Part shown: positions 4,360 to 58,609 of the stretch, piece by piece | How the letters are laid out: every line of letters begins with the position of its first letter | Numbering within the stretch: the first letter of the stretch is position 1 | Assembly (NCBI GenBank): GCA_963825505.1 | Contig: CAWGTL010000014.1 | Coordinates: 209,944-273,943 of the forward strand | Reading direction: 5' to 3' | Source: an uncultured Actinomycetota bacterium | Lineage (GTDB): Bacteria > Actinomycetota > Actinomycetes > Actinomycetales > CAWJMD01 | DNA length: 64,000 nt | Notes under the pieces: generated by a model | What the model was told of the DNA's origin: nothing | The model's database searches: none | The model's input: only the letters and a program-made list of their open reading frames with translations | Translations under genes and position numbers: made by a program

Positions 4360-4597
4360 CCACCACGAGGGTCGGCGTGCGCTCGTAGGACGGCGAGCGT
4401 TCTGCCACCACGAGGGTCGGCGTGCGCTCGTAGGACGGCGAGCGGTGCTGCCACCACGAGGGTCGGCGTGCGCTCGTAGGACGGCGAGCGTTCTGCCACC
4501 ACGAGGGTCGGCGTGCGCTCGTAGGACGGCGAGCGGTGCTGCCACCACGAGGGTCGGCGTGCGCTCGTAGGACGGCGAGCGTTCTGCCACCACTAGG
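4360..4597. repeat. Tandem repeat: five full units alternating 45 and 46 bp (91-bp super-unit), plus a degenerate sixth unit that contains the nuoA start
   Basis: The unit is ccaccacgagggtcggcgtgcgctcgtaggacggcgagcg(ttctg|gtgctg). Units begin at 4360, 4405, 4451, 4496 and 4542. A degenerate copy begins at 4587 (ccaccactaggctcggcgcGTGctcgcg). Copies are essentially identical apart from the alternating tail. Confidence 0.95.
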
Positions 4598-4605
4598 CTC
4601 GGCGC

Positions 4606-4992
4606 GTGCTCGCGTCCGCAGCCACGACGGCCCAGGACCCCGGCGGCTACGTCGTGGTCGGGGCCGTGGTGCTCGCCGGGCTCCTGCTCGTCGCGGGTGG
4701 TCTGGGCGCCAACCGGCTGCTGCGCCCGAGCGCCCCGAGCGCCGGCAAGGCCGCGACCTACGAGTCCGGGGTCGACCCGGTCGGCGAGGGCTGGGCGCAG
4801 ACCAACGTCCGCTACTACCTGTACGCCTACCTCTACGTCGTGTTCGCCGTCGACGCCGTGTACCTGTTCCCCTGGGCGACCGTGGTCGAGCTGTACGCCT
4901 GGCCCACGGTGCTGACGATGGCCGTCTTCCTCGGCATCCTCGCGGTCGGGCTCCTGCACGTCTGGCGGGCGGGGGTGCTGCGATGGCGCTGA
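4606..4992 (+). CDS. nuoA: NADH-quinone oxidoreductase subunit A
   Basis: The 128-aa product contains [40 protein letters not shown], a NuoA signature. The start is GTG. Confidence 0.9.
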
Positions 4993-5537
4993 CCCCCCTC
5001 CCGGCGCCCGGCCCGCGCCCCGGTCTGGTCCAGGTGGAGCACCAGGGCTCGAGCATCGGCCCGGCCCAGCAGCTCGCGCCCGACCCCGTGCGCTTCGTCC
5101 TCAACTGGGGGCGCCGCTACAGCCTGTGGGTCTTCAACTTCGGTCTGGCCTGCTGCGCGATCGAGTTCATCGCGGCGTCGATGTCCAAGCACGACTTCAT
5201 CCGGCTCGGCGTCATCCCCTTCGCCCCGGGCCCGCGGCAGGCCGACCTGATGGTGGTGTCGGGCACCGTCACCGACAAGATGGCGCCCGCGATCCGCCGG
5301 CTGTACGACCAGATGCCGGAGCCGAAGTACGTCATCTCCTTCGGCGCGTGCTCCAACTCCGGCGGCCCGTACTGGGACTCGTACTGCGTCACCAAGGGTG
5401 TCGACCAGATCGTGCCGGTCGACGTGTACGTGCCCGGCTGCCCGCCGCGGCCCGAGGCGCTGCTGCACGGCATCGTCACCCTCCAGAACAAGATCGCCGA
5501 GGAGCACCTCGGCCGGCGGTACGGCCAGGACGCATGA
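4983..5537 (+). CDS. nuoB: NADH-quinone oxidoreductase subunit B
   Basis: From the internal ATG 4983, which overlaps the nuoA stop: ...[16 protein letters not shown]...[11 protein letters not shown]...[11 protein letters not shown]. All cluster-N2 cysteines are present. Confidence 0.9.
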
Positions 5538-5599
5538 GCGAGCGCAGCGAGCGAGTCATCAGGCACAGGCCCCTGCTCATGGCGAGGCACGAGCCGTGA
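5534..5599 (+). repeat. Intercistronic 66-nt mini-ORF element, copy 1 ([21 protein letters not shown])
   Basis: ATGA at 5534-5537 overlaps the nuoB stop, and GTGA at 5596-5599 overlaps the nuoC start. The sequence is ATGAGCGAGCGCAGCGAGCGAGTCATCAGGCACAGGCCCCTGCTCATGGCGAGGCACGAGCCGTGA. It is homologous to the copies at 10888 and 57768. Confidence 0.9.
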
Positions 5600-6264
5600 G
5601 CATCGCGTGGCCCGAGGGGGTGCAGGTCGAGGAGTCGGACGCGTCCGGCACCCCGTGCTACGACGTGCCGGCGGATCGCTGGGTCGAGTCTGTGACCGCC
5701 TGCCACGCAGCGGGTTTCACGTACTTCGACTGGTTGTCGGCCGTCGACGAGCCCGACGCCGTGGGCGACCGCCCCGCCGGCGCCGACGTGGTCGCGCACC
5801 TCGTCGCGCTTCAGCCGCTACGAAGGATCCTGCTGCGTGCGAGGGTCGCGGCGGACGACGCGGAGATCGCCAGCCTGACGGCGGTCTTCGCCGGCGCGGC
5901 GTGGCACGAGCGCGAGACGCACGAGATGTTCGGGATCGGCTTCACCGGTTTCGACGACGGGTCCGGGTCGGGGCTGCGACCGCTCCTGCTCCCGGACGGC
6001 TTCGAGGGCACCCCGCTGCGCAAGTCCTTCGTCCTGGCGGCGCGGGCCGCCAAGGCCTGGCCGGGTGCGAAGGAGCCTGGCGAGGGAGGGGACGGCCACG
6101 CCGCCTCGCCGTCCCGCCGCAAGCTGCTGCCGCCCGGCGTGCCGGACGCGGCCACCTGGGGTCCGCGCGACCCGGGCGAGCCGGCCGGTCCGGTCGACAC
6201 CGCGGTCGAGGACACCACCACGACCGCCACGACCTCGGACGAGGGGTCCGACGGTGCTGGCTGA
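5596..6264 (+). CDS. nuoC: NADH-quinone oxidoreductase subunit C-like, with a low-complexity C-terminal tail
   Basis: From the GTG at 5596: VSIAWPEGV...FDWLSAVDE...AAWHERETHEMFGIGFTG...LLLPDGFEGTPLRKSF...KAWPGAKEPGE. A roughly 60-aa Pro/Thr/Asp-rich tail follows. Confidence 0.8.
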   Translation: MSIAWPEGVQVEESDASGTPCYDVPADRWVESVTACHAAGFTYFDWLSAVDEPDAVGDRPAGADVVAHLVALQPLRRILLRARVAADDAEIASLTAVFAGAAWHERETHEMFGIGFTGFDDGSGSGLRPLLLPDGFEGTPLRKSFVLAARAAKAWPGAKEPGEGGDGHAASPSRRKLLPPGVPDAATWGPRDPGEPAGPVDTAVEDTTTTATTSDEGSDGAG

Positions 6265-7213
6265 CGTGGTCGAGGTGGTGCTGCGGGCGGTCTGCGTCCT
6301 GACCGCCTTCCTGGTGCTGCCGCTCCTGGTCGGTCAGACCGAGCACAAGGTGATGGCGCACATGCAGGGCCGGCTCGGTCCGATGTACGCCGGTTCGTTC
6401 CACGGGTGGGCGCAGCTGGTGGCCGACGGCGTGAAGTTCGTGCAGAAGGAGGACTCCGTCCCGGCGGCCGCCGACAGCACGGTGTTCAAGCTCGCGCCGG
6501 GCGTCGCGCTGGTCCCCTACCTGGTGGCGCTGGCGGCGATCCCGCTCGCGCCGGGCGTGGTGGGTGCGGACGTCGACGCCGGGCTGCTGTTCGTCCTGGC
6601 GGTGTCGGCGGTGGGGGTGCTCGGGACGCTGATGGGCGGCTGGGCCAGCGGCAACAAGTACTCGCTGCTCGGGGGGATGCGCACAGCCGCACAGCTTCTC
6701 GCGTACGAGCTCCCGCTCGTGCTGGCAGCCACCTCGGTCGCCATGGCGGCCGGGACGCTCAACCTGAGTGCGATCGCCGAGTCGTGGCAGTGGTGGTGGC
6801 TGATCTGGCAGGCCCCCGCCGCGCTGGTCTTCCTCGTGGCGGGGGTGGCCGAGCTGCAGCGCCCGCCGTTCGACATGCCGATCGCCGACGCCGAGCTGGT
6901 GATGGGTCCCTACACCGAGTACGGCGGCCTGCGGTTCGCGTTCTTCCTGCTCGCGGAGTACGCCGGGATCGTCGTGCTGGCAGGGCTGTTCACCGTCCTG
7001 TTCCTCGGCGGGTGGGCCGGCCCGTTCGCCGAGGTGCTCGGCTGGCTGTGGACGCTCGTCAAGGTCGCGCTGGTCTCGTTCGTCGTGATCTGGATCCGGG
7101 TCGCGTGGCCGCGGCTGCGCGAGGACCAGCTGCAGCGGCTCGCCTGGGTCGTCCTGGTGCCGGTCGCGCTCGGCCAGCTCGCGCTGACGGCGGTCGTGGT
7201 GGTGGCGCTGTGA
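6254..7213 (+). CDS. nuoH: NADH-quinone oxidoreductase subunit H
   Basis: From the GTG at 6254 (11-nt overlap with nuoC): [13 protein letters not shown]...[17 protein letters not shown]...[26 protein letters not shown]...[17 protein letters not shown]...[15 protein letters not shown]. Confidence 0.9.
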
Positions 7214-7803
7214 GCGAGGTGGAGAAGGGGGCGGGCCCGCTGCGAGGTCTCGCGCGCGGCCTCGCCGTCACGCTGCGCACGCTCGGGAAGCCGGTCGTCA
7301 CCGCCGAGTACCCCGAGGTCGCGCCGCTGCTGCCGCCGCGCAGCCGGGGAGTGATCGCGCTGCTCGAGGAGAACTGCACCGTCTGCATGCTGTGCGCGCG
7401 CGAGTGCCCCGACTGGTGCATCTACATCGACTCGCACAAGGAGACCGTCGTCGTCGAGGGCGCCGCCCGCGACCGGCAGCGCAACGTGCTCGACCGCTTC
7501 GCCATCGACTTCTCGTTGTGCATGTACTGCGGCATCTGCATCGAGGTGTGCCCGTTCGACGCGCTGTTCTGGTCGCCCCAGTTCGAGTACTCGGGCACCG
7601 ACATCGGCGACCTCACGCACGAGCGGGAGCGTCTGCGCGAGTGGATGTGGACGGTGCCGCCGCCGCCAGCGCTGGACCCCGCCGCCCCCGCCGCCAAGGA
7701 GACCGAGGCCGCCACCCGCCCGGCCCGGTCGGCGCGTCCGGAGCGTCCGGCGCGTCCGGCCCGTCCGAGCGCCGGACCTCCGACGCCCGAGGACGACGCG
7801 TGA
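7210..7803 (+). CDS. nuoI: NADH-quinone oxidoreductase subunit I (2x[4Fe-4S]) with a repetitive Arg/Pro tail
   Basis: GTGA overlaps the nuoH stop. The product contains [12 protein letters not shown] and [12 protein letters not shown] ferredoxin motifs. The C-terminal tail is ...[18 protein letters not shown].... Confidence 0.9.
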
Positions 7804-8339
7804 CCGCCCTCGACGTCGTCCTCGGCGCCTGCGCCCTGCTGACGGCCGCGGCCGGAGCGCTGGCCGTGACGAGCAGCCGGGTGGTGCACGCCGCGCTGTG
7901 GCTGGTCGTCGCGCTCGGCGGGCTCGCGGGCGTGTACCTGCTCCTCGGCGCCGAGGTCGTCGCCCTGGTGCAGCTGCTGGTCTACGTCGGTGCGGTCGTC
8001 GTGCTCGTGCTGTTCGCCCTGATGCTCACCCGCGCCCCCACCGGTCCCACGCCGCAGAGCGGTGGCACCGACGACCTCGACTCCCCGCGTCCGGTCCGGT
8101 GGCTCGCCGCGGTCACCGGGTTCGCCACGGCCGTGCTCGTCACCGGGGCCCTGGTCGCCACCTCGGGAGCCGGGACCTTCGTCGAGCGCGACGCGAGCCG
8201 CGGCGCCGCCCGACCGCTGGGAGAGAGCCTGTTCGGCAGCTGGGTGCTGCCGTTCGAGCTGCTCTCGGTGCTGCTGCTCGCGGCACTGGTGGCCGCCGTC
8301 GCGGTGAGCCGCGGTCGTGACGACGAGGACGGTGCGTGA
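7800..8339 (+). CDS. nuoJ: NADH-quinone oxidoreductase subunit J
   Basis: GTGA overlaps the nuoI stop. The product reads [14 protein letters not shown]...[21 protein letters not shown]...[17 protein letters not shown]. Confidence 0.85.
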
Positions 8340-10891
8340 TGCACCTGCTCGTCCCGTGGCTGCTCGTCGGCGTGCTCGCCGGGCTGGGCGTGTACGGCGT
8401 GATCGCCCGGCGCAACGCGGTGATGGTCCTGGTCGGCGCCGAGCTGCTCCTCAACGCCGCGGTGCTGCTGCTGGTCACCACCGACGTCGCGCCCACGGGC
8501 CCGGCGGATCCCCTCCTGTCGGGCCAGGTGGGCGCGCTGTTCGCGGTCACGGTGGCCGCCGCCGAGATCGGCCTCGCGCTGGCGATCGTCCTGCTGCTGT
8601 TCCGCACCCGCGGCAGCGCCGACCTGCGGTCGGCCCGCTCGCTCGGCGAGACCGCCCGCGCCGTCGACCCGGCGGGTGAGCCCTCGGTGAGCCCGACCGA
8701 CCTCGTCCTGGTGCTCGTCCTCGCGCCGGCGCTCGCCGCGCTCGTCGGCCTCCCGCTCGGCCGGGTGCACCGGCGGCTCGCCGTCGCGTGCGGGGTCGGC
8801 GGAGCCCTGGTGTCGCTGCTCGCCGCGCTCTGGCTCGCCCGCGAGACCTGGGACGGCTACCCGTACGTGACCGCCGTGCCGTTCCTCGGCCGGGTCGACA
8901 CCGGCGCGGCGCCGGACACCTCGGCGCTCGACCTGCGAGTCGACGGTCTCGGCGGACTGGTGTCGGTGGCGGTCACGCTCGTCGCCCTCGGGGTGCAGGT
9001 GTACTCCGCCGGCTACCTGCGTCGGGCGCCCGACGACGCCTCCCACGCGGCGGACCCCGCGCCCACCCGCTACCCGGCGTACGCGGCCACCGTCTCGCTG
9101 TTCACCGCGGCGATGCTGCTCGTGGTGCAGGCCGACGACCTGTTCCTCGTGCTGGTCGGCTGGGAGGTCATGGGCATCTGCTCGTACCTGCTGGTGGGTC
9201 ACCACAGCGAGCGACCCGCAGCGCGTCGTGCCGCGGTGCAGGCGTTCCTGGTCACCCGGGTCGGCGACGTCGCGTTCGTGATCGGGATCATCGTCCTGTA
9301 CGCCTCCACCGGCACGAGCCAGATCGGTCGCGTCGTGGCGCAGGTCGACGAGATCGGCACGGGAACGGCCACTCTCGCGGCGCTGCTGCTGGTCGTCGGG
9401 GTGATGGGCAAGTCGGCCCAGTTCCCGTTCCACGGCTGGCTCCCGGACGCCATGGAGGGGCCGACGCCGGTCTCGGCGCTGATCCACGCCGCCACGATGG
9501 TGGCCGCCGGCGTCGTCGTCCTGGCACGGCTGCAGGCGTTGCTGGAAGCGGCGCCGATCGCCCTCGCGACGCTCGCCGTGGTCGCGACGGTGACGATGGT
9601 GGGTGCCGGTCTGGCCGCGCTCGTCGCCGACGACATCAAGCGGGTGCTGGCGTGGTCGACCATCAGCCAGGTCGCGATCATGCTCGGCGCGCTGTCGCTC
9701 GGCTCCGACGCCGGACGCGCGAGCGCACTGGCCCACCTGCTGTCGCACGCGGCGTTCAAGTCGCTGCTGTTCCTGGCGGCCGGCGTGCTGGCCCACCTGG
9801 CGGGCACCACGCTGCTGAGCGGGATCCACTCGATGGGACGCCGCGCACCGTGGACGACCGCCGCCTGGGTCGTCGGGCTGCTCTCGCTCGCCGCCCTGCC
9901 GCCGTTCGCCGGGTTCCTCTCCAAGGAGGGGGTGCTCACGGCGGCCGAGCACGGGGCGCTGGACGGTGACGGCAGCGCGCCCGCCTGGGTGGCGGCCACC
10001 CTGCTCGTGGGGATCGGCCTCACCTCGGTGCTCACCGGCGCCTACGCCGGTCGGATGCTCGCCGTCACGGTCCGCAGACCGCCTGCCGCAGAGCCGGTCT
10101 GGGACGAGGAGTGGGAGGAGGGGCCCTGGGAGGGCGCGGCCGCCGCCCCGGTCGCCACCGGCGAGGACGACTACGACCTGGTCTTCGCCATCGACCCGGA
10201 GTACCACCCCGAGGACTACGTGGCGCCGTCCCCGGCCGAGCGCGAGCGCGCGTTGCGCCTGGCCGCGGAGCGGGCCCGGCGCGAGGAGGCCCGCCGGGAG
10301 GCCGAGCGGCTCGAGGCGGAGCGGGTGCAGCTGCAGCAGGAGGAGGAGGCTGCGGCGCAGGAGCGCGCCGACGAGGACGACCGCGTGGCGGCGTCACGTC
10401 GCCGCGTCGCCCCGACGATGGGTCTGACCGTCGGGGTGCTCGCGCTCGTCACGCTCGCCGTGGCGGCGCTCCCGCTGGCCGGTGCCCGGCTGCTGGTACC
10501 GGTCGACCTCGAGCCCCTCACCGCTGCTGTCGGTGGTTTCCTCGCTCTCACAGGGCTTCTCATCGGCGTCTCGCGTGGACCGCGCGGCTCTGCCGACCTG
10601 GTCGACCGCGTGCCCGCCCGGCTGCGGGCTGCCGCGGCGTCGGGCTACGGCTACCAGGCGGCGCAGCAGGCGCTGGTGGTGCGTCCGGTTCAGGCGCTCG
10701 CCCGGCTGGTGGCCGCCGGGGACCGCGACGTCGTCGAGGGCTACGTGCGCGCCCCGGCCGTCGCTGCCCGCTGGCTCGGTGCCGGGCTGCGGCGCGTGCA
10801 GACCGGGGTGGTCACCGGCTACCTCTCGTGGGTGGTCGGCGTCGCCGTGGCCGTCGCCGTGGTGGCCGTCCTGGTGGGAGGCGGGCCGTGA
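8336..10891 (+). CDS. nuoL: Single 851-aa ORF fusing a NuoK-like domain (about aa 1-105) to NuoL
   Basis: The N-terminus, [45 protein letters not shown]...AAAEIGLALAIVLLLFR, is NuoK. There is no in-frame stop before the NuoL body (...WEVMGICSYLLVGHH...GKSAQFPFHGWLPDAMEGPTPVSALIHAATMV...). The C-terminal lateral-helix region carries a charged insertion. Confidence 0.8.
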   Translation: MMHLLVPWLLVGVLAGLGVYGVIARRNAVMVLVGAELLLNAAVLLLVTTDVAPTGPADPLLSGQVGALFAVTVAAAEIGLALAIVLLLFRTRGSADLRSARSLGETARAVDPAGEPSVSPTDLVLVLVLAPALAALVGLPLGRVHRRLAVACGVGGALVSLLAALWLARETWDGYPYVTAVPFLGRVDTGAAPDTSALDLRVDGLGGLVSVAVTLVALGVQVYSAGYLRRAPDDASHAADPAPTRYPAYAATVSLFTAAMLLVVQADDLFLVLVGWEVMGICSYLLVGHHSERPAARRAAVQAFLVTRVGDVAFVIGIIVLYASTGTSQIGRVVAQVDEIGTGTATLAALLLVVGVMGKSAQFPFHGWLPDAMEGPTPVSALIHAATMVAAGVVVLARLQALLEAAPIALATLAVVATVTMVGAGLAALVADDIKRVLAWSTISQVAIMLGALSLGSDAGRASALAHLLSHAAFKSLLFLAAGVLAHLAGTTLLSGIHSMGRRAPWTTAAWVVGLLSLAALPPFAGFLSKEGVLTAAEHGALDGDGSAPAWVAATLLVGIGLTSVLTGAYAGRMLAVTVRRPPAAEPVWDEEWEEGPWEGAAAAPVATGEDDYDLVFAIDPEYHPEDYVAPSPAERERALRLAAERARREEARREAERLEAERVQLQQEEEAAAQERADEDDRVAASRRRVAPTMGLTVGVLALVTLAVAALPLAGARLLVPVDLEPLTAAVGGFLALTGLLIGVSRGPRGSADLVDRVPARLRAAAASGYGYQAAQQALVVRPVQALARLVAAGDRDVVEGYVRAPAVAARWLGAGLRRVQTGVVTGYLSWVVGVAVAVAVVAVLVGGGP

Positions 10892-10953
10892 GCGAGCGCA
10901 GCGAGCGAACCATCGAGCGCAGTCGGCGGTCGACGGCGAGGAACGAGCCGTGA
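10888..10953 (+). repeat. Intercistronic 66-nt mini-ORF element, copy 2 (VSERSERTIERSRRSTARNEP*)
   Basis: GTGA at 10888-10891 overlaps the nuoL stop, and GTGA at 10950-10953 overlaps the nuoM start. The sequence is GTGAGCGAGCGCAGCGAGCGAACCATCGAGCGCAGTCGGCGGTCGACGGCGAGGAACGAGCCGTGA. Confidence 0.9.
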
Positions 10954-12558
10954 CCGGCGGCGAGCTGCTGCTGGTGGCGGCGCCGACGGTGCCGCTGGTG
11001 GGCGCCGCTGCCACGCTGCTCACGCGCCGGATCCCGGGCGTCCCGGCCGCGGTGGCGCTCGCGTCGGCTGCGCTCGGCGCGCTCGTCGCCGTCGGCCTGC
11101 TGCTGGTCGCGCCGCCGTGGCGCGAGGCGGGCGACTCGGTCGCCGTCGACCTGCCCTGGGCCGACCTCCTGGGCAGCCGGCTGCGGCTCGGCTGGGACGG
11201 CATCACGGCGCCGTTGGTCGTCCTGACCGCCGTGCTGGTGCTGCTCTGCGTCCTCTACCTGCGCTGGACCGCCGACGGCCACGACCCGGTCGCCGACGGC
11301 GGGGAGGGTGCCCACGCGCACGACACCCCGCGCGACGACGCGCCACCGGCCCTGCTGGCGGCGCTGCTGCTCGTCGGCTCCGGCGCCGTCGCCACGTTCG
11401 TCGCCCGCGACCTGCTGCTGTTCTTCGTCGCGTTCGAGACCGTCCTGGTGCCGATGTGGTTCGTGGTGGCCAGGTTCGGCGACGCCTCGGCCCGGCCGGG
11501 GGAGCGCGACGGCGTGGCCGCGCGGTCGGCCGCCGCGACGCGCTTCGTGCTCTACACCGCCGCGGGCTCCGCGGTGATGCTCATCGGGCTGGTGCTGCTC
11601 GTGGTGCGCACCGGCACCACCGACATGCTCGAGATCGCCCGGGTGGCACCCGATCTCGACTCCGGCACCCAGGCAACGGTCGCCCTGTTCCTGCTGCTGG
11701 GCCTCGGGGTGAAGGTGCCGGTCTGGCCGCTGCACTCCTGGCTGCCGCCGGCTCACACCATCGCGCCGACGGTCGGGTCCGTGCTGCTGGCCGGTGTGCT
11801 GCTCAAGCTCGGCAGCTACGGCCTCGTGCGGCTGGTCGCCGGGCTCGTGCCGGACGGCCTCGCGCGCTGGTCGGTGCCGCTCGCGGCGGTGGGCGTCGTC
11901 GGCGTGCTCTGGGGCGGACTGGTGTGCCTCGTCGAGCGCGACCTCAAGCGGTTGGTCGCCTTCTCGTCCGTGGCCCACATGGGCTTCGTGGCGCTCGGTG
12001 TCGCGTCCGGGACGCCGGAGGGGTTGCAAGGTGCGCTGTTCGTCGGCGTCGCGCACGGCGTCGTCACAGGTCTGCTGTTCTTCGTCGTCGGGATGCTGAA
12101 GCACCGCACGCACACCGCCGACCTGCACTCGCTCGGCTCCGGGCTGCGCGACCGCTCGCCGCGGCTTGGGCTGGGTGCTCGCGCTCGGCTGCATCGCGGG
12201 GCTGGGGCTGCCGGGACTGGCCGGGTTCTGGGGCGAGGTCCTGGCGCTCGTGGGCACCTGGCGCGGTGAGGAGCGGCTGGGCGGCGCCGGCGCGGTGGCG
12301 TTCACCGTCGCCGCGGCCGTCGGCACGGCGCTCGCCGCGGCCTACCTGCTCCGCGTCCTGTACCTGGTGTGGCACGGTCCGGCGGAGGAGCCCCGCGACG
12401 CAACCGCGGCCGTGGGGACGGGCGACCTGCGACGCGGCGAGCAGGTGGTGCTCGCGCCGCTCGTGCTGGCCGCGGTCGCGTTCGGCGTGCTCCCGTGGCT
12501 CCTGCTCTCGCTCACCGGTCCCGCAGTGCGGCTGCTGCTCGAGGCGGGTGCCGGGTGA
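10950..12558 (+). pseudogene. nuoM: NADH-quinone oxidoreductase subunit M, reading frame broken by one extra base near 12168-12171
   Basis: The frame from GTG 10950 gives VTGGELLLVAAPT...FFVAFETVLVPMWF...VPVWPLHSWLPPAHT...AFSSVAHMGF...LRDRSPRLG and then turns to nonsense. The +1 frame (track ORF 12166..12558) continues with WVLALGCIAGLGLPGLAGFWGEVLAL.... The junction is cgg ctt ggg c tgg gtg. Confidence 0.8.
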
Positions 12559-14009
12559 GCGTCCAGTCCGTCGACGTCGTCGCCACCGGACCGGTTCTCG
12601 TCACCGGCCTGGCTGTGCTCGTCGTCCTCGTCGTCCAGGCGGTGCTGCCGGGACGGCGGCTGGTGCTCGACGCCGTCGCGGTCGGCGGCCTCGGCCTGGC
12701 CGGCGTCGCGCTGGTGGTGCTCGCCGCGGGCGACCTGCCGCGAGCCACGTTCTGCGCGCAGGGCGTCGGGGCAGGGCGGTGCTCGTTCGTCGCCGATCCC
12801 GTCACGGTGGCGTTGCAGCTCGTGGTGCTGCTGACGGCGGTGATCGCGCTGCTGCTCGCGCTCGACGGTCCCGGCGCCTCGGGACGCACGACCCGGGCGG
12901 AGCACCACGCGCTGCTGCTGGCGGCGGTCGCCGGTGCGCTGGCCCTCGCCGGCGCGCGCGACCTCGCGACGCTGGTGGTGGCCCTGGAGACCGCGTCGCT
13001 GCCGGTCGTGGGGCTGGTGGCCCTGCGGCGCGACGCCGACGGCGCGCAGGCTGCCACGAAGCTGCTGCTGGTGGCCGTCACCTCGCTCGGGCTGCTGCTG
13101 CTCGGCGTGGCGCTGATCTACGCGGGCACCGGTTCCCTGCACCTGTCAGCGGTCGCGGCCGCCACCGCTGACGGCGGCTCTCCGGTGGTCGTTCTCGGCA
13201 CCGTGCTCGCCGTGGCGGGGATCGGCTACAAGGTGGCAGCGCTGCCGTTCGGCCTGTGGGTGCCCGACGTGTACGCCGGGTCCCCGGTGCCGGTCGCGGC
13301 CTTCCTGTCCACGACCTCGAAGGTGGCCGGTCTCGCGGCCGCGGCGATCCTGCTCGTCATCGGGCTGCCGGGCGACTCCGCCTCGTGGCAGCCGTGGTTC
13401 GCGGTGCTCGTGGTCGCGACGATGACGATCGGCAACCTGGTGGCCCTCGCCCAGACCGGCGCGGTGCGGCTGCTCGCCTGGTCGACGGTGGCCCAGGCGG
13501 GGTGGGTGCTCCTGCCGCTGCTCGGCACCGGCGACGCCGGCACCCGGATCGGTTCGGCGGCGGTGTACCTGCTCGCCTACGGGACGGCGTCCGCGGTCGC
13601 CTTCGCCGTCGTCGTGCTGGTGACGCGGCACCACGTCTCCGGTGCCGGCCACCTGCTGGAGGACCACCGCGGGCTGGTCCGCCGCGAGCCCGTCGCCGCT
13701 CTGCTCCTCGCGCTCGCCCTGCTGAGCCTCGCCGGGCTGCCGCCGGGCGTCGCGGGGCTGGTGGCGAAGGTGGCCGCCCTGCGGCCCGTGGTCGACGACG
13801 GGCTCTGGTGGGTCGCGGCCGCGGCGGCCCTGAACGTGGCGCTCGGTCTGGCCTACTACCTGCGCTGGACCGCCCTGCTGCTGGCACGCCCGACCGACGA
13901 CGACCCGCCCCCCACCTGGCAGGTGCGACCGGCCGAGGGGGCCGCGCTGGGGCTCGGCGGGGTGCTGCTCGTGGCGTTCTGCGTCGTCCCCGGCCTGATG
14001 GTGCTCTGA
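12555..14009 (+). CDS. nuoN: NADH-quinone oxidoreductase subunit N
   Basis: GTGA overlaps the nuoM stop. The product reads VSVQSVDVVATGPVLV...YKVAALPFGLWVPDVYAGSPVPVAAFLSTTSK...LLAWSTVAQAGWVL.... Confidence 0.85.
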   Translation: MSVQSVDVVATGPVLVTGLAVLVVLVVQAVLPGRRLVLDAVAVGGLGLAGVALVVLAAGDLPRATFCAQGVGAGRCSFVADPVTVALQLVVLLTAVIALLLALDGPGASGRTTRAEHHALLLAAVAGALALAGARDLATLVVALETASLPVVGLVALRRDADGAQAATKLLLVAVTSLGLLLLGVALIYAGTGSLHLSAVAAATADGGSPVVVLGTVLAVAGIGYKVAALPFGLWVPDVYAGSPVPVAAFLSTTSKVAGLAAAAILLVIGLPGDSASWQPWFAVLVVATMTIGNLVALAQTGAVRLLAWSTVAQAGWVLLPLLGTGDAGTRIGSAAVYLLAYGTASAVAFAVVVLVTRHHVSGAGHLLEDHRGLVRREPVAALLLALALLSLAGLPPGVAGLVAKVAALRPVVDDGLWWVAAAAALNVALGLAYYLRWTALLLARPTDDDPPPTWQVRPAEGAALGLGGVLLVAFCVVPGLMVL

Positions 14010-56796: not shown

Positions 56797-57771
56797 GTGG
56801 GTGTCGAGATCTCCGTCGACGGCCTCACCAAGTCGTTCGGGTCGCAGCTGATCTGGGACGACGTCACGCTCACCCTCCCCGAGGGCGAGATCTCGGTGAT
56901 GCTCGGTCCGTCCGGTACGGGCAAGTCGGTGTTCCTCAAGACGCTGGTGGGCCTGCTCAAGCCCGACCGCGGCTCGATCGTCATCGACGGCAAGGACATC
57001 ACCCGGCTGCGCGAGGCCGACCTGTACGAGGTGCGCAAGCTGTTCGGCGTGCTGTTCCAGGACGGCGCGCTGTTCGGCTCGATGAACCTCTACGACAACA
57101 TCGCCTTCCCGTTGCGCGAGCACACCAAGAAGTCCGAGTCCGAGGTCGAGGCCGTCGTCACCGAGAAGATGGACCTGGTGGGCCTCACCGGCGCCGAGGA
57201 CAAGCTGCCGGGCGAGATCTCCGGCGGCATGCGCAAGCGTGCCGGCCTGGCCCGGGCGCTGGTGCTCGACCCCGAGATCCTGCTGTTCGACGAGCCCGAC
57301 TCCGGCCTCGACCCGGTGCGCACCGCGTACCTCAACCAGCTGATCGTCGACCTCAACGCCCAGACCGGCGCCACCTGCCTGATCGTCACCCACGACATCA
57401 ACACCGCCCGCACGGTGCCGGACAACATCGGCCTGCTGTACCACAAGCACCTGGCGATGTTCGGGCCCCGCGAGATGCTGCTGTCGAGCGAGGAGCCGGT
57501 GGTCCGGCAGTTCCTCAACGCCCAGCGGGTCGGCCCGATCGGCATGAGCGAGGAGAAGGACGCCGACGAGCTCGCCGCCGAGTCCGGCCAGGAGCTGCCC
57601 CCGCTGCCGCCGATCCCGATGCAGCTCGAGCCGAGCGACGGCAGCCACCGCCCGACCCAGCGCGAGCCCGGCGCGTGGTGCCGCGACAACGGCGTGACGC
57701 CGCCGCCGGGGTCGTTCCAGGGCGACCCCACCAGCCCCAAGACCCTCAGCGCCGCCGGGGCCGACGCATGA
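56797..57771 (+). CDS. mceG: Mce-associated ABC ATPase (Mkl/MceG, MlaF-like)
   Basis: GPSGTGKSVFLK (Walker A), ISGGMRKRAGLARAL (signature motif) and LLFDEPDSGLDP (Walker B). A Pro-rich C-terminal tail follows. It lies directly upstream of yrbE/mce. Confidence 0.9.
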   Translation: MGVEISVDGLTKSFGSQLIWDDVTLTLPEGEISVMLGPSGTGKSVFLKTLVGLLKPDRGSIVIDGKDITRLREADLYEVRKLFGVLFQDGALFGSMNLYDNIAFPLREHTKKSESEVEAVVTEKMDLVGLTGAEDKLPGEISGGMRKRAGLARALVLDPEILLFDEPDSGLDPVRTAYLNQLIVDLNAQTGATCLIVTHDINTARTVPDNIGLLYHKHLAMFGPREMLLSSEEPVVRQFLNAQRVGPIGMSEEKDADELAAESGQELPPLPPIPMQLEPSDGSHRPTQREPGAWCRDNGVTPPPGSFQGDPTSPKTLSAAGADA

Positions 57772-57833
57772 GCGAGCGGAGCGAGCGAGTCATCCAGCAC
57801 CGTGCGCACGCCATGGCGAGGTACGAGCCGTGA
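57768..57833 (+). repeat. Intercistronic 66-nt mini-ORF element, copy 3 ([21 protein letters not shown])
   Basis: ATGA at 57768-57771 overlaps the mceG stop, and GTGA at 57830-57833 overlaps the yrbEA start. The sequence is ATGAGCGAGCGGAGCGAGCGAGTCATCCAGCACCGTGCGCACGCCATGGCGAGGTACGAGCCGTGA. Confidence 0.9.
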
Positions 57834-58609
57834 GCGCCGTGACGGGAGCCGCCACCGGCGCGCTGCGGCAGACCGGGTCGCTGTTCGCGATGATGCTCGA
57901 CACGCTGCGGATGTGCTTCCGGCGCCCGTTCCAGGTCCGCGAGTTCGTCCAGCAGTCGTGGTTCATCGCGTCCGTGACGATCCTGCCCACCGCCCTGGTC
58001 TCGATCCCGTTCGGTGCGGTCATCGCCCTCCAGCTGGGCAGCCTCACCCGCCAGCTCGGTGCGCAGTCCTTCACCGGCGCGGCGAGCGTCCTGGCCGTGA
58101 TCCGCGAGGCCAGCCCGATCGTCACCGCGCTGCTGATCGCGGGCGCGGGCGGCTCGGCGATCTGCGCCGACATCGGCTCGCGCAAGATCCGCGAGGAGAT
58201 CGACGCCATGGAGGTGCTCGGCATCTCGCCGATCCAGCGCCTCGTCGTGCCGCGTGTGCTCGCCACGATGCTCGTGGCCGTCGGCCTCAACGCGCTGGTC
58301 TCGGTGGTCGGCGTCGCGGGCGGCTACTTCTTCAACGTCGTCCTGCAGGGCGGCACCCCGGGCGCGTACCTCGCCTCCTTCACCGGCCTGGCGCAGCTGT
58401 CCGACCTGTGGGCCGGTGAGGTCAAGGCCCTGGTGTTCGGGTTCATCGCCGCCATCGTCGCCAGCTACAAGGGGCTCACTGCGGGCGGCGGTCCGAAGGG
58501 CGTGGGCGACGCGGTGAACCAGAGCGTCGTCATCACCTTCATGCTCCTGTTCGTCGTCAACTTCGTCCTCACGGCCGTGTACTTCCAGGTCGTCCCCCAG
58601 AAGATCTGA
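57830..58609 (+). CDS. yrbEA: Mce-system permease YrbEA (MlaE family)
   Basis: The 259-aa product contains ...FVQQSWFIASVTILPTALVSIPFGAVIALQLG...REEIDAMEVLGISPIQRLVVPRVLA.... Confidence 0.9.
   Translation: MSAVTGAATGALRQTGSLFAMMLDTLRMCFRRPFQVREFVQQSWFIASVTILPTALVSIPFGAVIALQLGSLTRQLGAQSFTGAASVLAVIREASPIVTALLIAGAGGSAICADIGSRKIREEIDAMEVLGISPIQRLVVPRVLATMLVAVGLNALVSVVGVAGGYFFNVVLQGGTPGAYLASFTGLAQLSDLWAGEVKALVFGFIAAIVASYKGLTAGGGPKGVGDAVNQSVVITFMLLFVVNFVLTAVYFQVVPQKI

Follow-up and report, generated by a model that had tools for sequence, protein, structure and literature searches.

To our knowledge, MIRUs (mycobacterial interspersed repetitive units), reportedly described by Supply et al. in 1997, are the only described colonisers of start codons that carry a relay mini-ORF (open reading frame), and their biology has barely been studied. 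MIRUs are apparently mobile units of 40-100 bp that are inserted at start codons with -4 coupling, carry small ORFs overlapping both neighbouring genes, occur in tandem arrays and show tetranucleotide direct repeats when filled and empty sites are compared (PMC3184786, PMC12548453). Here, we analyse a 62-nt repeat unit present in a 64,000-nt stretch of DNA (the window) from an uncultured Actinomycetota bacterium (contig CAWGTL010000014.1). One of its copies, copy 3, lies in the mce operon, between the gene of the Mce-type ATPase (mceG) and that of the first permease (yrbEA).

Judged by the published descriptions of MIRUs, and not by a consensus sequence, these units appear to be the closest known kind, and the 62-nt repeat would be a new sequence family working in a MIRU-like manner. 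Its length falls within the 40-100 bp range and it is dispersed, with three copies in the 64-kb window, 10 in OY969553.1 and at least 13 in JBBQSN01. The copies are co-oriented with the operon genes and located at start codons, with a small ORF making 4-nt overlaps (ATGA/GTGA), and filled and empty sites differ by a repeated tetranucleotide at all three window sites. Like MIRUs, the units are sometimes arranged in tandem (loci L027, L009, L012 and L026), and for neither family is an enzyme known. The new family differs from MIRUs in its hosts, which are non-mycobacterial soil actinomycetes, and in its distinctive proposed hairpins with G.A pairs and GNA loops, which would pair with both start codons.

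Several other small elements resemble this repeat in part. Repetitive extragenic palindromic sequences (REPs) and REPINs, associated with REP-associated tyrosine transposases (RAYT), as well as the palindrome-associated transposable elements (PATE) derived from IS200/IS605, are also tiny non-autonomous repeats, and their imperfect hairpins on one strand have a possible counterpart in the proposed hairpins of the unit. However, REPs are RAYT-linked, lie outside coding frames, usually after genes, and bear a GTAG-type motif, whereas the 62-nt unit sits on start codons and forms a frame-locked ORF. A miniature inverted-repeat transposable element (MITE) was considered and rejected, since the unit has no terminal inverted repeats: its 5' end reads RTGAGCGAGCG (R, purine), the reverse complement of its 3' end reads GGCTCGTNCCTCGCC, and the two ends are rather direct-repeat-like (GCGAG). 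Rickettsia palindromic elements (RPEs) enter ORFs without shifting the frame and are translated into the encoded protein, and the Correia elements of Neisseria have terminal inverted repeats and TA duplications. Both are small repeats tolerated inside transcription units through their compatibility with expression, but neither provides a relay mini-ORF at start codons. Finally, the anatomy of the unit recalls the synthetic bicistronic designs, or translational coupler cassettes, mentioned in the literature (PMC12548453). These use a short leader ORF containing the SD (Shine-Dalgarno) sequence of the gene and an overlapping stop/start, with a ribosome unfolding the structure and then re-initiating; they are engineered, whereas the 62-nt unit is natural and apparently self-propagating.

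Copy 3 is a recent insertion at the mceG-yrbEA junction

Comparison with related genomes revealed that copy 3 is a recent, lineage-specific insertion into a GTGA overlap of the mce operon and no ancestral spacer. The mce loci of relatives were retrieved via the ATPase protein and placed by a tree of the flanking DNA. In this tree, the window forms a clade with L001, L112, L113 and L114 (support 97/99, 96-99% identity), and L002, L003, L004, L115 and L116 fall outside it, at about 91-92% DNA identity; L117, with an identical empty junction, was left out of the tree. The six outgroup loci (L002, L003, L004 and L115-L117) all read GACGC directly followed by GTGAGCGC, with a bare GTGA overlap and no insert, whereas the window and L112 carry an identical 62-nt unit before GTGA. 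Furthermore, the element was absent from all 80 further metagenomic mce loci that were fetched and searched with nhmmer. In metagenomic mce loci, the spacing between the ATPase and permease genes is mostly -4 to about +20 nt.

Copy 3 is letter-identical in the independent assembly L112, and there are 0 differences at this site among the window, L112 and contigs from two soil runs. In the Logan contigs of soil metagenomes, the filled site was seen and no empty allele was found. All runs containing the sequence were DNA (metagenome) runs, with no RNA run among them.

A similar arrangement is observed for the two other copies of the window, which occupy the nuo operon. Both nuo sites are filled, letter for letter, in L118 (NuoC 99%). 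On the other hand, the nuoB-nuoC site is empty in L119-L122 (NuoC 82-84%), with a bare ATGA or GTGA, and the nuoL-nuoM site is empty in L119-L121, with a bare GTGA. At all three window sites, the filled state is thus RTGA-58 nt-RTGA and the empty state a single RTGA. The original prediction had proposed a dispersed element rather than a nuo-specific linker, and the comparison of mce loci in close relatives bears this out: the segment is missing from 6/6 of the nearest outgroup loci, and copies are found at unrelated genes in four other metagenome-assembled genomes (MAGs). An equivalent spacer at every actinobacterial mceG-yrbEA junction is contradicted by the empty outgroups and by the count of 0/80 in the metagenomic loci.

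The junction in the window (57768-57833) reads ATGAGCGAGCGGAGCGAGCGAGTCATCCAGCACCGTGCGCACGCCATGGCGAGGTACGAGCCGTGA, that is, the 62-nt repeat unit followed by GTGA, and its reading frame consists of 21 codons plus TGA. As had been noticed earlier from the letters of the window, the cassette sits between the Mce ATPase and the first permease with ATGA and GTGA overlaps. The features of the junction and its two flanking genes are as follows.

57768..57829, plus strand: copy 3, 62-nt unit (RTG + 59 nt); the segment missing from the empty sites of relatives in the filled/empty alignment
57768..57833, plus strand: putative relay mini-ORF, 21 codons + TGA; an open frame of the same length is present in 28/28 aligned family members
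57768..57771, plus strand: ATGA shared by the Mce ATPase stop and the start of the mini-ORF; at empty sites, a single GTGA takes its place
57818..57821, plus strand: SD-like GAGG, 8 nt before the yrbEA GTG, read from the sequence
57830..57833, plus strand: GTGA shared by the stop of the mini-ORF and the yrbEA (MlaE) start; from the sequence and Pfam
56797..57771, plus strand: upstream gene, Mce/Mkl-type ABC ATPase, 324 aa (Pfam ABC_tran, E = 1.8e-30)
57830..58609, plus strand: downstream gene, first MlaE/YrbE permease, 259 aa (Pfam MlaE, E = 2e-70)

The SD-like GAGG is invariant in 28/28 aligned copies, but this stretch belonged to the search pattern. Among all copies found, copy 3 has the highest nhmmer score (61.6 bits). 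Homologues of the upstream ATPase carry the name phospholipid/cholesterol transport ATP-binding protein. The ATPase-permease pair is preceded by rplJ-rplL and followed by a second MlaE gene and then by MlaD/Mce genes.

A different insert was observed at the same mceG-yrbEA junction in L058 (2172-2234), a relative of greater distance whose ATPase is 82% identical. It is 59 nt long and reads ATGAGCAATCTTTCCCCACGCCATTGCTCGCTGGCGCTCACAATGCCGCGGGGGCCCCG followed by ATGA. Its mini-ORF has 20 codons and an ATGA overlap on either side, and it contains inverted repeats of its own, GAGCAAT/ATTGCTC. This insert may represent a second, unrelated relay-repeat family colonising the same junction.

Short inserts occur within the clade of the window

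An insert is present at the mce junction in every member of the clade and in no outgroup. Its length varies among the members.

Window and L112: 62-nt unit before the start codon; mini-ORF of 21 codons
L113 (3472-3495): 20 nt, ATGAGCGAGCGGACGACGGC then ATGA; mini-ORF MSERTTA and stop
L001 (3472-3489): 14 nt, GTGAGGGCCGCGGC then ATGA; 5 codons, MRAAA and stop
L114 (3472-3489): 14 nt, GTGAGGGCCGCGAC then GTGA; 5 codons, MRAAT and stop

The flanks of L113 and L112 differ by less than 1%, and the first 13 nt of the 20-nt insert in L113 are in common with the 62-nt element. The 62-, 20- and 14-nt inserts each have a length of 2 mod 3 and are bounded by RTGA on either side, a pattern suggestive of decay under selection for coupling. 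Since all clade members carry an insert and the outgroups do not, and since the 62-nt copy is close to the consensus of a family present in several genomes, a parsimonious scenario would be a single insertion basal to the clade, after which internal deletions persisted only when the relay frame was kept. The 20- and 14-nt inserts are probably relics of this decay or footprints of excision. Their origin by a simple single deletion of the 62-nt unit was considered as well, and it does not fit unless extra substitutions are assumed.

Some long-read contigs of this clade contain frameshift-like single-base indels (L112:3475-4314, L113:1108-2193 and L114:3475-4267), with effects such as MlaE calls shortened to 211 aa and a call in which rplJ and rplL are fused. 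Differences of one base among these contigs need caution.

The repeat is dispersed in the window and in other genomes

A repeat search of the window revealed one three-copy family (5529-5601, 10883-10955 and 57763-57835), and the nhmmer profile of the family recovered exactly these three copies in the 64 kb. All three are single, not tandem. Pfam places the two remaining copies at nuo junctions, in agreement with their earlier assignment to the nuo operon.

5534..5599, plus strand: copy 1, nuoB-nuoC (Pfam Oxidored_q6 and Complex1_30kDa on the flanking genes)
10888..10953, plus strand: copy 2, nuoL-nuoM (Pfam Proton_antipo_M on both flanking genes)

Over 66 nt, copies 1 and 3 share 54 positions, and copy 2 shares 51 with copy 1 and 51 with copy 3. 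Copies 1 and 3 are indeed the closest pair, as had been claimed, with a margin of merely three positions. Chance resemblance is excluded, since 100 shuffles gave 0 matches and the 62-nt unit recurs in other genomes.

To describe the family beyond the window, the pattern AGCGAGCGNAGCGAGCGA-N16-40-GGCGAGGNACGAGCC was scanned against one genome per prokaryotic species (185,579 representatives), giving 27 loci. In 23/23 of the matches with a 59-60-nt core, RTG precedes and RTGA follows the core, though the pattern left the flanks free. Multiple copies were found in four MAGs.

OY969553.1 (MAG): 10 copies by the strict pattern
CAVVQA01 (MAG): 3 copies
CAVQDD01 (MAG): 2 copies by profile
JBBQSN01 (MAG): at least 13 units

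In nearly every copy, the 3' RTG opens a long co-oriented ORF with coding-like codon-position GC. The length of the unit is highly constant, with 28/29 full copies of exactly 62 nt. The sole exception (L025:3759-3825, minus strand) has a 60-nt core with one extra G, and its mini-ORF continues in frame into the downstream gene, with no stop at the TGA. Tandem arrays with a 62-nt period are present in L027 (three units), L009 (two units), L012 and L026. Variant units of 53 nt, having lost one 9-nt AGCGAGCGN repeat, were found at L026:3209-3261 and L019:3199-3253 (minus strand); SERSER is thereby reduced to SER, and one of these variants starts with TTG and heads a tandem pair.

In the soil metagenome run X4, loose ends were observed at window positions 57804 and 57837, where the conserved ends of the element are joined to other flanks, and the contigs of this run also show a different element centre, ACCAGAGGGTGCAGC... 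These other flanks and this other centre imply that the family also occupies different loci in that community.

The exact two-hairpin signature has no Mycobacterium match among the 185,579 species representatives, and no family copy was found on the viral contigs or PLSDB plasmids searched. Of the Rfam families, tRNAs alone pass the gathering threshold within the window, with nothing relevant at E <= 10 around the element, and NCBIfam gave no match for the three mini-ORF peptides. The literature search returned MIRU reviews and REPIN work and no description of this 62-nt family.

Five matches from Aeromicrobium correspond to a different repeat, an intergenic REP-like composite carrying both G.A/GNA hairpin motifs without RTG flanks. 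This repeat (L007:6850-7110; L013, L023, L031, L014) is located after stop codons or between convergent genes, is partly tandem, and differs in its central hairpin, which is rich in GC.

The target is a start codon followed by A

The original prediction also proposed that the element targets overlapping stop/start junctions. Such an overlap is indeed present at the window copies, but it is not a general property of the family: elsewhere, a coding ORF ends in the 5' TGA in only about 60% of copies, and the remaining copies, about 40%, overlap no upstream gene and are placed where a first gene starts, preceded by SD-like or -10-like motifs. Since many copies are located at first genes, the target shared by the copies is a start codon with A as its next base (RTGA), RTGAGC being preferred, and a stop/start overlap as such is not required. 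The RTGAGC continuation is found at 17/26 occupied sites versus 10/36 unoccupied RTGA junctions of the same DNA (Fisher p = 0.004). This excess points to a target preference or to a role of microhomology.

Proposed hairpins covary with both flanking start codons

In the ungapped alignment of 28 units (A3), the conserved ends vary only at the middle bases of two GNA triplets. Two folds are possible for these ends, GCGAGC-GNA-GCGAGC and GGCGAG-GNA-CGAGCC, both of which contain tandem G.A pairs. Like GNA triloops, such tandem pairs are classically known to stabilise mini-hairpins of DNA. In copy 3, the proposed hairpins occupy the two ends of the unit.

57768..57790, plus strand: proposed hairpin 1, GCGAGC-GNA-GCGAGC, with two tandem G.A blocks and a GNA loop; its pairs include the mini-ORF start codon
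57812..57832, plus strand: proposed hairpin 2, CAT-GGCGAG-GNA-CGAGCC-GTG, enclosing the SD-like GAGG and the yrbEA start codon

Hairpin 1 doubles as a 9-nt direct repeat (AGCGAGCGN, twice). RNAalifold predicts both hairpins independently and lengthens each of them up to a start codon, the 5' one for hairpin 1 and the 3' one for hairpin 2. The composition of the extending pairs in A3 is as follows.

Pair 10-32: GC 18, AU 7, GU 1, other 2
Pair 11-31: UA 17, UG 10
Pair 55-73: AU 23, GU 5
Pair 56-72: CG 20, UA 5, UG 3, none broken

Covariation links column 32 to the first base in the 5' start codon (Fisher p = 2e-4) and column 56 to that in the 3' start codon (Fisher p = 6e-4), and the observed number of double changes was reached in 0/500 shuffles. 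Since the element can bring only one of the two flanking start codons, descent alone cannot explain both associations. To judge from the alignment, some form of selection, or of target choice, for pairing must be at work. Owing to its G.U wobbles and G.A pairs, the fold is sense-strand-specific. By folding energy, hairpin 2 is the only one that stands out, and it does so as RNA (-7.5 kcal/mol, z = -2.6, 2/200 shuffles as good); as DNA, it has no support from folding energy. Overall, the structural case for the hairpins is moderate and rests on the covariation.

At the peptide level, conservation is seen in the N-terminal MSERSER and the C-terminal AR-EP, with free variation in the 8-9 codons between them. 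The positions of the conserved residues are exactly those of the two hairpins in the nucleotide sequence.

Other features of the nuo region

Directly upstream of nuoA, at 4360-4632, the window contains a tandem array with a 45/46-nt unit and a 91-nt super-repeat, present in two identical copies and one degenerate copy with an internal CGCTCG...CGAGCG inverted repeat. By profile search, this array is unrelated to the 62-nt family. The nuo cluster has the order nuoA-B-C-H-I-J-K-L-M-N (window 4606-14009; L119 5079-12654), and nuoD, E, F and G are not located between nuoC and nuoH, either in the window or in relatives.

Discussion

We consider it likely that the element is a non-autonomous dispersed repeat, recently inserted at the mce GTGA overlap, with a mini-ORF relaying ribosomes to yrbEA. 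Each unit would add RTG plus 59 nt at a start codon followed by A. The native start signal, which is the mceG coupling here and an SD sequence or a leaderless start elsewhere, would now open a disposable 21-codon mini-ORF, whose TGA overlaps a second start codon, usually GTG, preceded by the SD-like GAGG. A ribosome translating the mini-ORF would open hairpin 2, which holds this GAGG and the start codon of the gene, terminate at UGA and re-initiate at the overlapping GUG (termination-reinitiation). Operon coupling and gene expression would then survive the insertion, leaving it nearly neutral. Translation of the mini-ORF, its relay function and the way in which copies spread are inferred, whereas the insertion and dispersal of the unit, its RTGA junctions, tandem arrays and frame-locked length, and the covariation of both start codons are observed. 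The constant 62-nt length, together with the 53-, 20- and 14-nt derivatives that are all 2 mod 3, would fit selection on the relay.

Several points weigh against this interpretation. The relay function is deduced from the anatomy of the unit, and the derivation of the 14-nt inserts from the 62-nt unit is an argument from parsimony, without clear sequence identity. Several of the compared assemblies contain frameshift-like indel errors. The folding energies of hairpin 1 are unsupportive (z = 0.17 as RNA, 1.35 as DNA), and the whole element folds no better than its shuffles (z = -0.17, -1.09 and +1.16; -0.40 in another run). The hairpin cores were fixed by the search pattern, so that their invariance is uninformative, and the covariation concerns two pairs in copies partly related by descent. 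Finally, the analysis identified neither a transposase nor any other mobilising function, though no search of the genome for one was made.

Other explanations of the segment itself fare poorly. A conserved linker or regulator between cistrons of mce and, independently, of nuo, ancestral and involving no insertion, would account for the perfect 4-nt overlaps and the SD-like motif, as in a functional linker. It is nevertheless most improbable, with the site empty in the 6/6 nearest outgroup loci, the element absent from 80 metagenomic mce loci, and the 62-nt unit also present at unrelated genes in other genomes. It is also very unlikely that the unit is a real small-protein gene, encoding a 21-aa SERSER peptide and spread by duplication through the function of this peptide. 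Though the open frame has a constant length in 28/28 units and the MSERSER and AR-EP ends are conserved, the conserved residues are those of the hairpin positions, the middle 8-9 codons are free, and no NCBIfam match exists. Moreover, the 4-nt-overlapping tandem arrays and the frame-keeping 53-, 20- and 14-nt derivatives agree with selection for the frame and not for the peptide. As to an assembly or annotation artefact, frameshift-like indels do occur in the related long-read assemblies, but the filled site is identical in the window, L112 and two soil runs, the nuo copies are identical in L118, and the family is also present in unrelated assemblies, leaving this explanation with next to no probability.

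Concerning the way of spreading, template switching or gene conversion primed by RTGAGC(G) microhomology, with no dedicated enzyme, is unlikely but deserves some weight. The native empty sites already read GTGAGCG (mce) or ATGAGCG (nuoB-nuoC in L119/L120), RTGAGC is more frequent at occupied than at unoccupied junctions (17/26 vs 10/36, p = 0.004), and the tandem arrays and the 9-nt slippage variant show a slippage-prone sequence. However, nine occupied sites have only RTGA in common with the element, and a site-specific machinery would more typically account for precise insertions of 62 nt at distant loci and in several genomes. A miniature single-stranded DNA transposon of the REP/REPIN or IS200/IS605-PATE type, with both hairpins recognised in trans by an HUH (Y1) transposase and the start codon chosen as target by pairing with an internal guide base, seems to us rather improbable. 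It would agree with the two proposed subterminal imperfect hairpins on one strand only and their GNA triloops and tandem G.A pairs, with the covariation between start-codon bases and internal bases at both ends although only one of the codons can be element-borne, and with the recurrence of both hairpins in the non-ORF intergenic repeat of Aeromicrobium. On the other hand, the unit lacks a GTAG-type REP signature, its folding energies as DNA do not stand out, the numerous G.U wobbles (UG 10/28 at pair 11-31) suit RNA better than DNA, and the viral contigs and plasmids gave no matches.

A more far-reaching proposal would combine three ideas. The unit could home to start codons and move in the form of a single-stranded hairpin, choosing its target, or adapting to it, through pairing of the internal guide base with the first base of the start codon. 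The frame-locked relics of 14-20 nt left by its decay could quite generally give rise to the tiny mini-ORFs and short spacers between cistrons of high-GC operons. Moreover, the G.A/GNA module in the Aeromicrobium repeat could mark a wider superfamily with one mobilising enzyme. Homing via a guide base would explain the covariation of both flanking start codons; that all three ideas hold jointly is doubtful.

With the relay repeat as the favoured interpretation, the mceG-yrbEA junction offers a natural series of empty, 62-nt, 20-nt and 14-nt states within genomes that are 91-99% identical, and the relay hypothesis is directly testable at this junction with and without the unit. Such repeats turn over fast, and the series suggests a possible origin of short, frame-locked intercistronic spacers. 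It also carries a warning for annotation, as gene starts beside these repeats are easily miscalled. Furthermore, the units are potential natural translational couplers, and potential markers of the VNTR (variable number tandem repeat) kind, in high-GC actinomycetes.

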